This document shows, one piece after another, positions 3,313 to 13,500 of a DNA stretch of 20,000 nt (position 1 is the stretch's first letter; the number at the start of each line of letters is the position of its first letter). The position numbers and the translations under genes are program-made. The notes below the pieces were generated by a model. That model saw nothing but the letters and a program-made list of their open reading frames with translations. It searched no databases and was not told the DNA's origin. The stretch is from an uncultured virus (IMG/VR IMGVR_UViG_2645728113_000006). Its lineage: Duplodnaviria; Heunggongvirae; Uroviricota; Caudoviricetes. The DNA lies in IMG/VR virus record IMGVR_UViG_2645728113_000006; one strand, 5' to 3'.

Positions 3313-3385
3313 GTTGTATGCCTGAACAGTATCGACTCGTCACGACAATCTACTTATCCTAGATTATTTGATACGAGATCAAATC

Positions 3386-4192
3386 ATGTTGCCCGAGCCA
3401 AGGCTGGCGCTAAACGAACTACTCAAGGAGCGAACCCTGCTCTGGCATAAGATTGCTGAAAATCATTATGTTGACGAGTTTGAGGTTCGGCGACTTTTTA
3501 ATAAGCTTGATCGGCTGATAACAGATCCCGGTGCCGAGTTCAGTATTGCACCAGCCGCTTTGCATGAGCAGGCATATCTTTACGCTTACCAAATGAAAAC
3601 CTCTAACGCCCTGCGGTTGTTTGAAGATGCTCGCCGTGCGGGACTTGATGGGCTTGCCGTATCAATTTCTACGGCCCATGCTTTATATATTTGTGGCGAG
3701 GTCGAAATGTCCAGGGAAGAGATATTGCGTACTGACTATTCTGATGCGAATAACAGGGGGCTGTCAGGGCTGGCTGATACCTGCGTTCATACTGGCTTGC
3801 TGAAAATGGCCAGGGATCTTTACATTCGGTCTGGAAAACAGGGTGGCGAAGTAAGCACTCAAGTTTTGCGTGCGGCCGAAATAATGGACCAGATTGGCGC
3901 GACGGATGAACAAGTAATGCGCAGGATCGCGACGGCTGCAAAAATTATCAAGTCTATGTCTGCGCATCCGTTCATTGCATTTGACCTGTTCGCTATGCAG
4001 GGCGAGGGAATCCTCTACCGCTTCGTAGTGAATGGGAGTACTGAAAGGCTGGTCGAGATTGATATGGCAATTGATGAGGCATTAATCGCTGATTTCGATG
4101 AGGAAATTGATGACGTATTGTCGATTGGGATTGCGCCTTATGAGTTCGGTTCGAATATGTTAGCTGCGGATGGTTATTATGTCGGTGTGTAG
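3386..4192 (+). CDS. Hypothetical moron protein, helical/TPR-like N-terminus; possible partner of the downstream HEPN protein
   Basis: Long ORF (ATG 3386, alternative TTG 3368) with lower GC than the tail genes; overlaps the next gene by 14 nt. No family recognised with confidence. Confidence 0.65.
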   Translation: MLPEPRLALNELLKERTLLWHKIAENHYVDEFEVRRLFNKLDRLITDPGAEFSIAPAALHEQAYLYAYQMKTSNALRLFEDARRAGLDGLAVSISTAHALYICGEVEMSREEILRTDYSDANNRGLSGLADTCVHTGLLKMARDLYIRSGKQGGEVSTQVLRAAEIMDQIGATDEQVMRRIATAAKIIKSMSAHPFIAFDLFAMQGEGILYRFVVNGSTERLVEIDMAIDEALIADFDEEIDDVLSIGIAPYEFGSNMLAADGYYVGV

Positions 4193-4556
4193 TGATGATC
4201 TGTTGTTGTTAGCCGAGTCACTTATTGGAAGTAAGGATGAGGTTGGCAATCGTGCGAGCATAAGCAGAAGTTATTATGCACTGTACCATGAGGCTACAAT
4301 AGCCGCATCGGCGCTCTCTTTAAAAAGCAATCCAGATGTAAAAACAAGTCACGATAAATTAATTTCGCGCTTTACCGGTGCGACTAAAGGTCTTGCCTCA
4401 ATTGGGCGCGGCATTCTCAAGCAAAAGCGATTGCGTGCAATGGCTGACTATGAGATCGGCTCAGATCTCAATGCGTCCGAGGCGAGGTTCCATTTGGCTA
4501 CAAGCAAGCGGCTTGTAAGTGACTTGCGAAGGATCGCTGATCCTGCGAACTCTTAA
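4179..4556 (+). CDS. HEPN-domain protein (putative toxin/RNase)
   Basis: 125 aa from ATG 4179. RASISRSYYALYH and R..ADYE motifs are typical of small HEPN proteins. Confidence 0.75.
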   Translation: MSVCSDDLLLLAESLIGSKDEVGNRASISRSYYALYHEATIAASALSLKSNPDVKTSHDKLISRFTGATKGLASIGRGILKQKRLRAMADYEIGSDLNASEARFHLATSKRLVSDLRRIADPANS

Positions 4557-4815
4557 GATCTTTGCTGGATCAGGTCTTGAACAGAGTTTTCCTGTTATCC
4601 GCCACCCTGCTACAGTCCCGCCAAACCAAAGAGGGAACGACATGCGGATTTTTGCTGTGATGTGCGAGGACCATTGATGTGATGCTGTGTTAGAGCGCAA
4701 GAGACTTTGGCAGTTTTATATGGAAGAGCGAGAAATCGCGAGTAGCTCCTATTGATTGCTGGCGCTGATCATGGCCGAATGATAGCTTTCAACCGTATTA
4801 ATTTTTTTCCACGGA

Positions 4816-5691
4816 GTGGATGTGCCAGCCCTTATTCCCCAATTGGTCAATGCTGCACTCGATCCTCATACATCGGTTGCCAGCTTGCTAAGGCATGCGC
4901 TAGTAGCGGCAAATAGGCTTAGTCTCGTTGACCTGGCCGATTGGATGAGTTCGGAACTCAATGGCTACAAAACCGCTTCACTGCCGGAGTATAGAAAGCT
5001 CCGTGGCACTCTCATTTGTGAGCACGAATTTGGGGGGTGGATGCCTTTAGAGGTCACGCATGCGGCAACCCTTAATATGGTGTCTCAGCGACCGTTCTAT
5101 CAGTCCATCCCGGAATTAGAGCGATTAACTAGCAGCGGCGGGCCTTTCGTCGTTTTTTTTCCTCCAAAGAATGAAGTTTACTTACGCTCATTAATGAGGC
5201 CACCGACTAGGCCGGCAGTGGAAATACAGGCGAGCCAGATATTTGGCCTAATAGAGCTAGTTCGTAGCAGAATATTACAGTGGGCACTAGACCTTGAGTC
5301 CAAAGGGGTTATGGGTGAAGGTATGTCGTTTACATTGCAGGAGCGTCAGATCGTGGCTGCACAGCACTACCATTTTGGCGATGTTACTGGATCTCAAATT
5401 CAAATTGGCTCGAGTGGGTCGAATCAGTCCATCGCACCCGGTGACAGCACGGGAGCAATGAATGCGTTAATCAACCTGCTTCGTGATGTTCTAGCTCGGA
5501 ACGAGATTGATGGCGATGTGGCTGCCGAGTTGGTTGCCGAGCTCAAGACTCTGGAAGCTCAAGCCGAATCACCACGGCCTAAGGCATCAATTATCAGAGA
5601 AACCGCGCTGAGTATTCAGAGGGTCTTAGAGGGGGTTGCCGGTAACGTATTAGCGACCGCCGCTCCATTGATTTATTCGCTGGTGAGTTGA
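4816..5691 (+). CDS. AbiTii-domain protein (putative abortive-infection effector)
   Basis: N-terminus ALDPHTSVASLLRHALVAANRL...W...ELNGY...LPEYRKLRG resembles the AbiTii domain as I recall it. GTG start after GGA; terminator follows. Confidence 0.75.
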   Translation: MDVPALIPQLVNAALDPHTSVASLLRHALVAANRLSLVDLADWMSSELNGYKTASLPEYRKLRGTLICEHEFGGWMPLEVTHAATLNMVSQRPFYQSIPELERLTSSGGPFVVFFPPKNEVYLRSLMRPPTRPAVEIQASQIFGLIELVRSRILQWALDLESKGVMGEGMSFTLQERQIVAAQHYHFGDVTGSQIQIGSSGSNQSIAPGDSTGAMNALINLLRDVLARNEIDGDVAAELVAELKTLEAQAESPRPKASIIRETALSIQRVLEGVAGNVLATAAPLIYSLVS

Positions 5692-8055: not shown

Positions 8056-8627
8056 GCATGGAACTTGTCACACTAAAAATTACCGGCACGTCACCGCTGA
8101 TGATGCACAGCGACAAGCTGGCCAACCCTTTGAATCCAGCAACAAAGGCTCACAAGGAATTGACCGGTAAGCGCAAGAAGACGGACGACGATCATCTTGC
8201 CATTGCTCGCTCTGAGTTTATCGCTGGTGCCTACCACGATGAAAAGCTTGGCTTTTTTGTGCCAGGTGCGAATTTCGATGCGACGTTCTTGGCTGGCGCG
8301 AAGCTCCAAAAGCTGGGCACTCAATGGAAGCGCGGAGCGGTTGTGATGACTGACAAGGCGAAGCTTGAGTTCTCTGGCCCGACAACGCCTGACTCTCTTT
8401 GGGAGGATCAGCGGTTCGTTGACTGCCGCGGAGTAAAAGTTGGTCAAGCCAAGATCATGCGATACCGCCCGATCTTTCTTGAGTGGGCCGTGGAGCTGGA
8501 AGTTGCAATCAACGCTGACGTACTCAACATCGAGGAAGCAAAAAAAGCGATCACTGATTCTGGCCTGTTGATTGGGGTCTGTGAATACAGACCGCGCTTC
8601 GGTCGCTTCGAGGTGGAATATGTCTGA
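8052..8627 (+). CDS. Stand-alone Cas7/RAMP-like RNA-binding protein (candidate Vipr-type effector)
   Basis: 191 aa with RAMP hallmarks recognised by eye: N-terminal strand LKITGTSPLMMH, FFVPGANF (cf. IPGSS.KG), RYRPIFLEWAVELEV, and a C-terminal Gly-rich loop GLLIGVCEYRPRFGRFEV. ATGA-coupled to the antirepressor and upstream of a structured RNA array. Confidence 0.75.
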   Translation: MSMELVTLKITGTSPLMMHSDKLANPLNPATKAHKELTGKRKKTDDDHLAIARSEFIAGAYHDEKLGFFVPGANFDATFLAGAKLQKLGTQWKRGAVVMTDKAKLEFSGPTTPDSLWEDQRFVDCRGVKVGQAKIMRYRPIFLEWAVELEVAINADVLNIEEAKKAITDSGLLIGVCEYRPRFGRFEVEYV

Positions 8628-9078: not shown

Positions 9079-9130
9079 TAGCAGCGTAATATCCTTTCTA
9101 TGAGAGGGCATTGCGGTGCGAATGCATCAT

Positions 9131-9190
9131 GTGGCGTGGCGAGACAAGGTTGGGCGAGGTCTGGTTAGGTCGGGCATGTCTAGGTGAGGG
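9131..9190 (+). ncRNA. Putative guide tract 1 (12 NN-GGY pentamers)
   Basis: GT-GGC GT-GGC GA-GAC AA-GGT TG-GGC GA-GGT CT-GGT TA-GGT CG-GGC AT-GTC TA-GGT GA-GGG; exact 5-nt register. Confidence 0.8.
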
Positions 9191-9245
9191 CTGACAACAG
9201 CGTAATGCCGATTGGAATCAGTCGGCATTGCGGTGGCAGAAGCCG

Positions 9246-9310
9246 CTGGCAGGTTCTGGTCCGGCAAGTCGCGGCTAGGCCCGGCGGGGTGTGATTTGAT
9301 TTGGTATGGG
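9246..9310 (+). ncRNA. Putative guide tract 2 (13 NN-GGY pentamers)
   Basis: CT-GGC AG-GTT CT-GGT CC-GGC AA-GTC GC-GGC TA-GGC CC-GGC GG-GGT GT-GAT TT-GAT TT-GGT AT-GGG; exact 5-nt register. Confidence 0.8.
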
Positions 9311-9375
9311 CTGATAACAGCGTAATGTCTCTTCTTGGAGGAGGCATTGCAGTTTTAGAAGGTTTCGATTGACAT

Positions 9376-9898: not shown

Positions 9899-10498
9899 AT
9901 GTCAGCACTCGCAATTAATTATCAGCCGATGACTACCATCTTGCTTTATGGGCAGCTTAGGCAATTTGGAAGATCTTTCAGGTTGTCAGTTAAGTCCCCA
10001 GCCGAGGCTATCAAGGCGCTATGCGTACAGATCCCTGGCTTCGAGCGGTTCCTGTCGAACGCCAAGTCTCGCGGCATTGAGTTTGCCGTGTTTCGAGGGT
10101 CAAAAAATCTTGCAGAAAAAGAATTAGGATTTGGCGGTTCCGGAGAAATCCGTATAGCGCCTGTAATTACGGGCCGAAAGCGCGCAGGCCTGATGCAGAC
10201 CATTTTGGGCGCCATATTGATTGTGGTAGGTTTTTTTGCTTTCGGGTCGACAACAACTACAGGCGCAGCGCTCATAGCGGGCGGTATCGGTAGTGCTGCT
10301 GGGGGCGTAATCCAAATGCTTAGTCCGCAGGCGGCAGGCCTCAAGATGAGCGCTGCGCCCGAAAACCAGCCTGGATATGCATTTGGCTCGGCGCAGAACA
10401 CAACTGCATCCGGCAACCCGGTCCCGCTCTGCTACGGCAAGCGCAGGGTCGGCGGGGCGATTATTAGCGCCGCGATATACGCCGAAGACCAGATGTAG
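9899..10498 (+). CDS. Tail assembly protein, lambda gpI-like
   Basis: ATG 9899 after GGAGA. LYGQLRQFG...SPAEAIKALC ubiquitin-like N-terminus, a hydrophobic Gly-rich segment, and YAFG...GNPVPLCYG. Confidence 0.92.
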   Translation: MSALAINYQPMTTILLYGQLRQFGRSFRLSVKSPAEAIKALCVQIPGFERFLSNAKSRGIEFAVFRGSKNLAEKELGFGGSGEIRIAPVITGRKRAGLMQTILGAILIVVGFFAFGSTTTTGAALIAGGIGSAAGGVIQMLSPQAAGLKMSAAPENQPGYAFGSAQNTTASGNPVPLCYGKRRVGGAIISAAIYAEDQM

Positions 10499-10557: not shown

Positions 10558-13500
10558 ATGGGCGCAGCACAAAAGATCGATATACACGGCGCCAAAGGCG
10601 GCGAAGGTAAACCAAAAACGCCGACTGAGGCCCCGGACAGTCTGCGCTCTGTTGCTATCGCAAAAATGCTCATTGCCGTGGGCGAGGGTGAGTTCGAGGG
10701 CACGCCAACTGCCAAAGACATCTATCTCGACAACACGCCCCTGCAAGACCCTCAAGGCAACATAAATTTCCCGAACGTGAAGTGGGAGTGGCGCACCGGT
10801 GCCGTGGACCAGAGCTATATCCAGGGCATCCCTTCGGTCGAGAACGAGACCACGATCAGTACCGAGCTGCGCAGCGGGACACCGTGGGTACGGGCCATCA
10901 GCAATACCCAGCTTTCCGCTGTTCGCGTCCGTTTTGCGTGGCCTGTGCTTCAGTCCGTGGACTCTGGTGGCAACGTCAATGGCTACCGGATTGAATACAA
11001 GGTTGAGCTGGCCACCGATGGCGGCGCCTATCAGCAGGTGCTGAGCGAGGCTGTCGACGGCAAGACCACCAGCCTGTACGAGCGCACGCGCCGTATCAAT
11101 TTGCCGAAGGCCACTTCTGGTTGGCTGATGCGGATCACTCGCCTGACCGCGAATCAGAACAACAACAAAATCTCCGACACGATGCAAATTGCCGGCTTCA
11201 CCGAGGTGATCGACGCGAAGATCCGCTACCCGAATACTGCGCTGCTTTACATCGAGTTCTCGGCCGAGCAGTTCCGCAGCATTCCTGCCGTTACCGTCGA
11301 GACCAAACTGAAGAAGATGCAGGTGCCGAGCAACTACGACCCAGTGTCGCGCACCTACTCGGGCGTCTGGGATGGCACGTTTAAGCAGGCTTGGACCGAC
11401 AACGCGGTCTGGATGACCTACGACATCAGTACCGCCGACCGCTTCGGCCTGGGTCGCCGCATCAAGCCGTGGATGGTTGATATTTGGGAGTTGTATCGTA
11501 TTTCCCAATACTGCGACCAGTTGGTGCCGGACGGGAAGGGGGGCCTGGAACCGCGCTTCATCTGCAACTTGAACCTGCAGAGCAAAGCCGATGCCTGGTC
11601 ACTGCTGCGTGACATATCGGCGATCTACCGAGGCATGACCTACTGGGCCCAGGGCCAGGTCTTCACCCTGTCGGATATGCCGCGTGCCACTGACTTCGAC
11701 TTCGCCTATACCAGGGCCAACGTCCTTGACGGTAAGTTCACCTACTCCAGCGCGTCGGAGCGTACCCGGTACACCCGGGCGCTGATCAGCTACGACAACC
11801 CGCTGAACAACTACGACACCGATGTCACTGCTGTGACCGATGCAAAGCTCCAGCGGCGCTATGGTGACAATCCGCTGGAGATCAGCGCAATTGGTTGTAC
11901 CCGCGAGTCCGAGGCCCAGCGCCGCGGCAAGTGGGCGCTGCTGACCAACTCCAAGGATCGGGCGGTTACCTTCAAGGTCGGCCTCGACGGTCGCATCCCG
12001 CTTCCTGGTTACGTGATCCCCATTGCTGACGAACTGCTTGCAGGTCGGCCGGTGGGTGGCCGTATCTCGGCGGTGAACGGAAAGGTCATCACCCTGGACC
12101 GTGACACCCAGGCCAAGCCCGGCGACCGGTTGATCCTCAACTTGCCAGACGGCAAGTGCGAGGGGCGCACGGTGCAACTGGTCAGTGGCCGACAGGTCAC
12201 CGTAACCCTGGCCTACTCCGTACCACCGGAGCGTGAACTAGTGTGGGCGCTGGACGCCGACGATCTGGCGATCCCGCTTTACCGGGTGGTCAGCGTGGCG
12301 CGGCCAGAGCCCGGCGTATTTGAAATCTCAGCCGTGCAGTACGACCCCAGCAAGTTCGATCACATCGACACCGGCGCCCGGTTGGAAGAGCGGCCTATCA
12401 GCGTTGTACCGATCACCGTAGTTCCTGCCCCGACGAGCGTCGACATCACGTCGAACTACTCCGTGGACCAGGGCCTGGCAATCAGCACCATGAATATCTC
12501 GTGGCCTGCTGTGGCTGGCGCAGTGGCTTATGACGTGGAGTGGCGCAAGGACAGCGGAAACTGGATCAAGCTGCAGCGCACCGGCTCTACCAGCGTTGAC
12601 GTCACCGGCATTTACTCGGGCGCATATCTCGCCCGTGTTCGGTCGGTGAGCGCGTTCGAGATTTCGTCCATTTGGAAGAGCTCCAATCTGACCAACCTGG
12701 AAGGGAAGGTCGGCCTCCCGCCGGCCGTGGCGTTCCTGTCCACCACTAGCGAGCTGTTCGGCATTGGCATTCGCTGGGGTTTCCCGGCTGACGCCGAGGA
12801 TACCCAGCGCACCGAGCTCTGGTATGGACAGGCTAATGATCTGTCGGTGGCGACCAAACTCGCAGACTTGGCGCACCCCCAAGCGAATTACAGCATGCAG
12901 GCCCTAAAGGCCGGCGCGCAGTTCTTCTTCTGGGCTCGCCTGGTCGACCGTACCGGTAACGTTGGCCCGTTCTATCCCGTCGGTAACGGCGTGATGGGGA
13001 TGGCAAGTGCCGATGCGGCGCCGGTGCTGGATTTGATCGCCGGGCAGATTGGGCGTACGGAGCTGGGCAAGGACATCACGGACGAGATCGACAAGATCCC
13101 AGGGCTGCAGGCGCAGATCGACGCGCTCGATGGGTTGTCCGCCTACGACCCGGAGTCGACCTACCTTGAGTTTGACCTAGTGGTGGTTGGTAAGCGGATC
13201 TACCAGGCCACCGGCCCGGTACCCGTCGATACGCCACCACCGAATGCCAACTACTGGCAGGACGTGGGTCAGGCGGTGGTCACTGCCAATGGCCTTGCGC
13301 GTCAAGTTGAGATCAATACCACCAGCATCACCGAACTGGACGGGGTGGTCACGGCTCAGGCGTCAAGTCTTCAGGCGTTGCAATCGGCTTATCGGGACGA
13401 CACGGGGGAGGGGGATCTGGTTGATGCACTCCAGGGCTACAACGCCTCGGCGAGTTTCGCGCAGGAAGTGAAGACGCAGGCCACGAAGAACGCAGCCATG

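Follow-up and report, generated by a model that had tools for sequence, protein, structure and literature searches.

Type II VIPR systems, RNA-guided gene silencers, have been described in the Escherichia phage SUSP1 and in a prophage of Pseudomonas fulva (bioRxiv 10.64898/2026.04.26.720920; structures in 10.64898/2026.04.26.720927). According to the available text of the structure preprint, double-stranded DNA is bound through pairing of the NN bases of the guide, each third base is skipped, and a PAM is not needed. Vipr filaments begin to assemble close to the 3' tail and repress transcription from either strand (10.64898/2026.04.26.720927). The main targets named for the P. fulva clade, delimited by more than 90% protein identity to the P. 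fulva Vipr, in the accessible part of the discovery paper are lysis-lysogeny regulators and other VIPRs, and the absence of self matches of at least 80% over the whole guide is reported there as a control (10.64898/2026.04.26.720920).

Self-avoidance is already known from vrRNA-targeting vrRNAs and from viral mini-CRISPRs. In the SUSP1 family, such vrRNAs have self scores below their scores on rivals, which is read as avoidance of autoimmunity, and the same preprint, as far as its text is accessible, argues that the skipping of wobble bases prevents mutational escape in coding targets (10.64898/2026.10.15.759431). The mini-CRISPR arrays of SPV1 and SPV2 target close kin, and their own orthologous loci are mutated or deleted, preventing self-targeting (PMC6858448, available in part).

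The locus analysed here lies in a 20,000-nt stretch of DNA, referred to as the window. As in SUSP1 and P. fulva, it combines vipr, an accessory gene and a GGY/NN array with a one-base skip on the wobble position, its targets are found in other Pseudomonas prophages on either strand, and the whole-guide self match stays below 80% (here 79%). Unlike in the accessible account of these systems, an essential tail gene of the carrier itself is changed at read positions. The self match of the guide is lower than its match on rivals, as for the self-avoiding vrRNAs of the SUSP1 family; their target is a vrRNA locus, whereas the escape-like change in the window affects protein-coding tail genes and takes the route of one amino-acid change combined with first-position Leu or Ser AGY/TCN swaps. 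Similar to SPV1 and SPV2, the virus aims at genes of close kin and its own orthologous site is changed. These viruses, in contrast, use contiguous spacers and Cas proteins of the host, and wobble changes suffice there, while the VIPR code leaves only codon positions 1-2 for such changes. Relative to the available parts of these sources, target-side recoding of a tail gene is the new element. A recoding of the carrier's coding target or tail gene was not found in the literature; the target lists of the discovery paper, outside the scope of that search, may name J or I.

The VIPR locus and its guides

The window covers the tail and lysis end of a lambda-like prophage. A cassette between the tail genes K and I encodes a repressor, a Bro-N antirepressor, a 191-aa and a 152-aa protein and carries two GGY/NN tracts (Table 1). 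As judged by homology and layout against the available description (10.64898/2026.04.26.720920), it is a type II VIPR system. The 191-aa protein shares 42.5% identity with SUSP1 Vipr (residues 2-189, E 1e-45). Among the contact residues named in the accessible part of the structure preprint (10.64898/2026.04.26.720927), the seven residues H17, K33, R39, K82, G87, R138 and R179 are identical; D177>E and W178>Y are conservative, and E71, M72, K88 and C173 differ. The 152-aa protein resembles the neighbor of SUSP1 vipr (23.9% over 113 aa, E 7e-12) and from its position is likely vap1, which reproduces the two-gene layout vipr + vap1 of type II VIPR. A Pfam search returned no family for Vipr or Vap of the window.

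Table 1 Features of the VIPR locus and its sites in the tail operon of the carrier (positions in the window)
Feature	Position	Strand	Details
vipr, RAMP-like effector, 191 aa	8052..8627	+	homology to SUSP1 Vipr
accessory gene, likely vap1, 152 aa	8620..9078	+	resembles the gene directly after SUSP1 vipr
vrRNA 1 repeat tract, 12 GGY/NN units	9128..9187	+	nine-unit core = J motif VDKWELYRI, sense strand
vrRNA 2 repeat tract	9248..9307	+	nine-unit core = antisense of tail gene I motif NTPGYAFGS, Ser AGY
tail assembly gene I	9899..10498	+	located between K and J, following the annotation of phage Medea1; translation
second altered site, own gene I NQPGYAFGS, Ser TCG	10364..10390	+	14/18 to guide 2
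tail tip protein J, 1187 aa	10558..14121	+	Pfam PF24801, PF13550, PF09327
guide 1 footprint on own J	11473..11508	+	19/24 read bases; 16/18 in core 11476-11502
16-bp core common to all five near-J carriers	11481..11496	+	spans the changes at 11483 and 11491 plus T at 11481, 11484, 11496

Read as GGY/NN, the first tract gives GT GT GA AA TG GA CT TA CG AT TA GA, with the core spelling V-D-K-W-E-L-Y-R-I at codon positions 1-2. A conserved 3' tail begins at 9188 for vrRNA 1 and at 9308 for vrRNA 2, and the start of the tail is identical for both 12-unit tracts. This corresponds to the vrRNA format of type II VIPR, in which 9-16 GGY/NN repeats precede a conserved 3' tail, and the same layout is found in related loci. 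With a skip of one base, the length tried, placed on the wobble position, the guide 1 core matches J at 18/18 and the guide 2 core matches the antisense of gene I at 18/18.

Three related inverted repeats flank both guide tracts (window 9080-9355) and are candidate processing hairpins. A promoter and terminator scan gave results at shuffle level. The best chromosomal match of guide 2 (20/24 at G000:C34:100239, + strand) is located within a terminator-like hairpin; it is a single match and may be due to chance. The vipr gene of the window is itself a 21/22 target (8139-8175) of a guide from the related locus L139, and both L139 and L145 carry anti-vipr guides together with altered vipr sites of their own. 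Morons are located between K and the VIPR cassette (3368-5691), namely two genes of 274 and 128 aa, both without Pfam match, and a gene with an AbiTii domain (PF18864, E 2e-36). The 128-aa moron is presumably HEPN-like.

The guide 1 site in the carrier's own J gene

The identity of J is indicated by matches in the PDB to lambda J (8iyk, E 1.4e-39) and the F2 pyocin tail fibre (E 1.2e-65), by its GpJ FNIII-A, Phage-tail_3 and tail-tip domains, typical of a lambda-like tail tip J, and by its place after the tail genes L, K and I. The guide 1 footprint covers J codons 306-317, MVDIWELYRISQ. Relative to the nine-unit guide core, J of the window differs only by AA/AT at base 11483 (Lys>Ile) and CT/TT at base 11491 (Leu TTG), which are the two core mismatches, AAN>ATT and a silent CTN>TTG, that an earlier note on this DNA had proposed. 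A mismatch of the first footprint codon ATG to guide unit GT is common to most relatives and separate from this change. The 19/24 self match was equalled in 3 of 1000 shuffles of the unit order on the window and is thus above chance; across the 7.2-Mb genome, the J site is the best match for the 12-unit guide.

Which units are read can be estimated from the best natural targets of 39 guides from related loci, selected for high score: units 2-11 counted from the tail match at 0.88-0.99. Because matching at the last unit before the tail is no better than chance (0.33) and reaches only 0.54 at the first unit, the read window comprises about ten units. Both self mismatches (units 6 and 9) fall within this zone, over which the self match is 17/20 in the window and 15-16/20 in the other carriers.

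The Lys at this site, described in the earlier note as conserved, is indeed so: among 120 J sites chosen through a flanking pattern downstream, unselected for the site allele, 98 encode Lys, 12 Arg, 9 Glu and one, a distant J, Ile. The odd composition ascribed to the patch is borne out. T is the third base of six of the 11 codons at 11476-11508, compared to C/G-ending codons in 35/40 before and 34/40 after. GC content over 33 or 36 nt is nowhere in the J gene lower than at this site, which ranks 13 of 1177 eleven-codon J windows in codon usage; the T-rich wobble shows no strand bias. Composition alone is insufficient as evidence, however, because one other J stretch (about 10903-10950) is equally T-rich with 6/11 T-ending codons.

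Distribution of the J alleles

A perfect guide 1 site in J is present in about 810 IMG/VR stretches, an estimate from 10 of the 64 IMG/VR parts with 120 stretches listed. Among the matches listed, vipr was found in none of the 69 perfect-site stretches with at least 4 kb upstream. The Ile+TTG allele is found in three IMG/VR stretches, one of them protein-identical to the window, and all three encode vipr and the guide. Genomes of the genus show the Ile pattern in 1/400, a guide carrier, and the perfect site in 18/100. An IMG/VR scan for non-Lys codons gave 36 matches: 31 Arg in more distant J, the three carriers, and two Ile in J proteins of 31% identity, with codons ATC/CTA; the records of these two, 44% and 84% complete, have no vipr. 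The joint variant was thus seen only in guide carriers (IMG/VR, 400 genomes), which speaks against the suspicion that it is equally common in phages lacking the system. This privacy holds for Lys>Ile joined with TTG. For the TTG part it does not, as a scan of IMG/VR for Lys + TTR gave 57 matches, with vipr absent from the available DNA of all. The silent Leu swap alone is background at roughly 6-7%, and since it is ordinary, Lys>Ile carries the signal.

The pattern-drawn sites give the same picture without selection for the allele. Among the 51 of 120 with at least 60% core identity, 30 are perfect, 10 score 17 and 11 score 15-16, with no Ile and two TTG; the 11 unselected sites with at least 85% identity comprise ten perfect ones and one at 17/18. 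VIPR-positive loci without the guide (n=15) have a perfect site in four cases, a VDRWEMYRI-type site in nine and other sites in two. The cultured phage Medea1 is VIPR-positive and guide-free and has a perfect site.

The VDRWEMYRI allele of the 15/18 type also occurs in L328, without vipr within 6 kb. In L146 and L150-L161, a clade that is VIPR-positive but has no anti-J guide, VDRWEMYRI sites (14-15/18) are altered in the same two codons as in the window, possibly as remnants of former targeting or through simple divergence. Two sequencing runs (X6, X8) hold both the carrier allele, at low depth, and common alleles, which are about 40-fold deeper in X6. Carriers and perfect targets hence co-occur.

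Relationship of the guide carriers

Scans for guide 1 gave six matches in IMG/VR, one in GTDB and one in JGI, resulting in seven distinct carriers including the window. None of the seven matches its own J core in full (range 13-16/18). All five carriers with a near J have Ile+TTG, two of them with an additional Ile>Val, and the two with a distant J mismatch anyway (13 and 15 of 18). In four of the five near-J carriers, unit 11 of vrRNA 1 reads G-, which adds a mismatch to the Ser codon they carry.

The near-J carriers share the 16-bp core listed in Table 1 and differ outside it. Each of the five T bases in this core is rare among 50 unselected near-J sites (0-22%). The core probably has one origin and was eroded from both sides. 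With a single origin of the allele, the carriers are not independent.

Between carriers, the J flanks have 78-93% identity; except for the pair L127/L302, each carrier is nearer to a non-carrier than to another carrier. J trees were built from 612 bases upstream and 726 downstream with the site left out (40 unique rows from 57 passing a no-gap filter, which excluded L128; non-carriers taken from the perfect-site and TTR scans). For five carriers, the upstream tree requires four label changes, four of them forced by well-supported branches, and the downstream tree five, three of them forced. The genes between the cassette and the J site are 60-85% identical to the window in L127, L302 and L166. 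On the vipr tree, guide 1 moves between clades (six changes for seven carriers).

L128 is sister to the carrier L302 on the vipr tree (98/92), nested inside the carrier clade, and VIPR-positive, yet lacks both window guides, has one different guide, and its J site is perfect. It differs from the window in 10/30 bases at the site, compared to 1-4 in nine of ten neighboring bins and 9 in one. J divergence thus has a clear peak at the site in comparison to L128. In comparison to the nine closest non-carriers, the site ranks in the top 1.5-13% of windows and is not the maximum. A 37.8-kb contig of run X5 has guide 1 and an unchanged site, with 124 differences elsewhere; it is possibly of the L126 type.

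The gene I site and altered sites of other guides

Similarly, gene I of the window is altered at the guide 2 site, by Thr>Gln and Ser AGY>TCG. Of its 20 nearest Vipr-free orthologues, 19 match guide 2 at 18/18, and L127/L302 match at 12/18. The altered allele is less private than that of J, because it is present in three loci without guide 2, namely L121 and L128 (VIPR-positive) and L263 (vipr not in the available DNA).

Among 118 guides of related loci, 50 have a non-self match of at least 85% among the compared loci, in each case above the best self score. From these, 32 were mapped to the carrier's own orthologue, 16 had none in the available DNA and two were dropped. A clear case of an altered own site is L167, whose tail gene L matches at 15/18 while 11 of the 12 nearest match at 18/18; L133 and L139 are likewise clear, and L143, L154 and L165 are weak. 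The self gap is small for some guides (17/20 self vs 18/20 in L139 and L143).

Probable self-escape and alternative explanations

The two J changes at guide-read positions probably weaken self-binding, by which the tail operon of kin would be silenced and that of the carrier spared. The proposal that the site was altered to avoid self-targeting is supported by the VIPR-positive sister L128, which lacks the guide and has a perfect site, and by the fact that Ile+TTG without the guide was not found in the scans. Further support comes from the 16-bp core shared across unrelated J backgrounds, from the X5 contig with guide 1 and an unchanged site, and from the similar pattern for guide 2 and for L167, L133 and L139. 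As no PAM is needed, a mismatch would be the only cue to distinguish self from non-self. A roadblock inside J would also cut expression of the downstream tail and lysis genes. A guide against a gene conserved in kin would thus block the late operon of its carrier as well, so that carriers are expected to persist only with an altered site. Wobble changes would be useless under this code; first-position Leu swaps, Ser AGY/TCN swaps and tolerated substitutions remain, as seen here. The allele may have arisen once, with recombinants that regained the common site being purged while the guide was present, which would whittle the shared island down to both mismatches. Drift on the guide side (G- in unit 11) would add to the self mismatch.

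The escape may be partial, because the 16/18 core match (89%) equals the mean of 89.2% with which SUSP1 vrRNAs match satellites, targets described as silenced in the accessible Results (10.64898/2026.10.15.759431). Also weighing against self-escape are the VDRWEMYRI alleles at 15/18 in loci that have no anti-J guide, the background occurrence of TTG, the low number of carriers (seven) and the narrow self gap of some guides. The fraction of near-J kin (n=47) scoring no higher than self over units 2-11 is 36% with the window guide and 9% with those of the four other carriers.

An order of events in which the victim came first is an unlikely alternative: the allele would have arisen by drift or as an escape from the guide of another phage, and the resistant lineage then accepted the cassette. 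The same guide, with shared cat/gac triplets, is indeed present in L134, whose distant J mismatches naturally, and the movement of guides between vipr clades, as well as the TT unit of an L134 guide that fits the TTG allele, is in line with such a history. It predicts the allele in guide-free phages, though, and none was found in the 51 unselected near-J sites, the 400 genomes or the exact scans of IMG/VR. Even under this order, self-avoidance would explain the linkage observed today and leave only the origin of the allele to another cause.

Less probable still is that the mismatches merely tune binding, with partial occupancy of the own J gene dampening late genes, for example in the lysogen, as a tolerated or useful self-repression. 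The self match of 17/20 lies near that of the natural targets described as silenced (about 89%, 10.64898/2026.10.15.759431, as far as accessible), and mismatch-tolerance data were not found in the available parts of the VIPR preprints, the structure preprint (10.64898/2026.04.26.720927) having no text on mismatch, seed or tolerance there. Against tuning, the other carriers are further from self, a self-regulating guide needs no rare Lys>Ile change, and the full-length self match is below the 80% line above which the accessible discovery paper has no self matches.

Neutral hitchhiking of a foreign AT-rich patch, unrelated to the guide and linked to the cassette 2.3 kb upstream, is very improbable: the short distance, the single origin and the synonymous T bases common to all carriers would fit, but the DNA between cassette and site is too diverged in L127, L302 and L166, the carriers are polyphyletic in their J flanks, the core they share falls on the guide footprint, the guide 2 site shows the same, and a donor allele was not found in IMG/VR.

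Under self-escape, the locus offers a natural answer to how a PAM-less VIPR carrier could spare itself when targeting genes shared with kin. It also provides a natural mismatch series, in which the two or three altered guide units are known. The published claim that skipping of the wobble base blocks escape in coding targets would have to be qualified, since Leu and Ser swaps and one tolerated substitution appear to be used.

Composition at skipped bases

Relative to neighbors, GC at the skipped positions of own sites is below that of the flanks in 15/18 cases. After merging of shared alleles this holds for 10/13 (one-sided p 0.046, strand bias absent), a value that may be inflated as the neighbors were chosen by high score. 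A link between the Y base of the guide and the skipped target base was not significant (p 0.11). Deamination of the displaced strand was rejected as an explanation of the T-rich patch, since C>T (20/40 at sites vs 58/261 in flanks) and G>A (17/38 vs 43/191) rise alike with sense guides. A low-GC donor for the patch was not found in IMG/VR. A resident rival as the target was also dismissed, as the genome (G000) has just one J and one vipr.

A broader and more tentative idea is that Pseudomonas VIPR cassettes act as weapon-immunity pairs. Each kin-targeting guide might be matched by a recoded island of 16-30 bp in an essential gene of the carrier, which would survive recombination only as long as the guide is there, driving amino-acid change in tail proteins and splitting phage populations, with islands A/T-shifted at skipped bases. 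If the A/T shift is true, VIPR binding could be locally mutagenic, or the skipped bases might not be neutral for binding.

Further guides in related loci

L134 and L303 carry a second guide, a homologue of guide 1, whose Leu unit is TT. This guide agrees with the TTG allele and mismatches their own CTC codon, a possible counter-move in an arms race. The single guide of L128 corresponds to the final codons of tail gene I (equivalent to 10470-10498 in the window). L128, L127, L302 and L263 end gene I with a different peptide, IYSEDKA, possibly a third escape allele. Guides of eight loci (L132, L135, L142, L144, L146, L151, L165, L170) converge on the tape-measure motif LLQQGGQLKD.FGG, and carriers with a tape-measure orthologue show Ala/Ser and Ile/Val variants at this motif.
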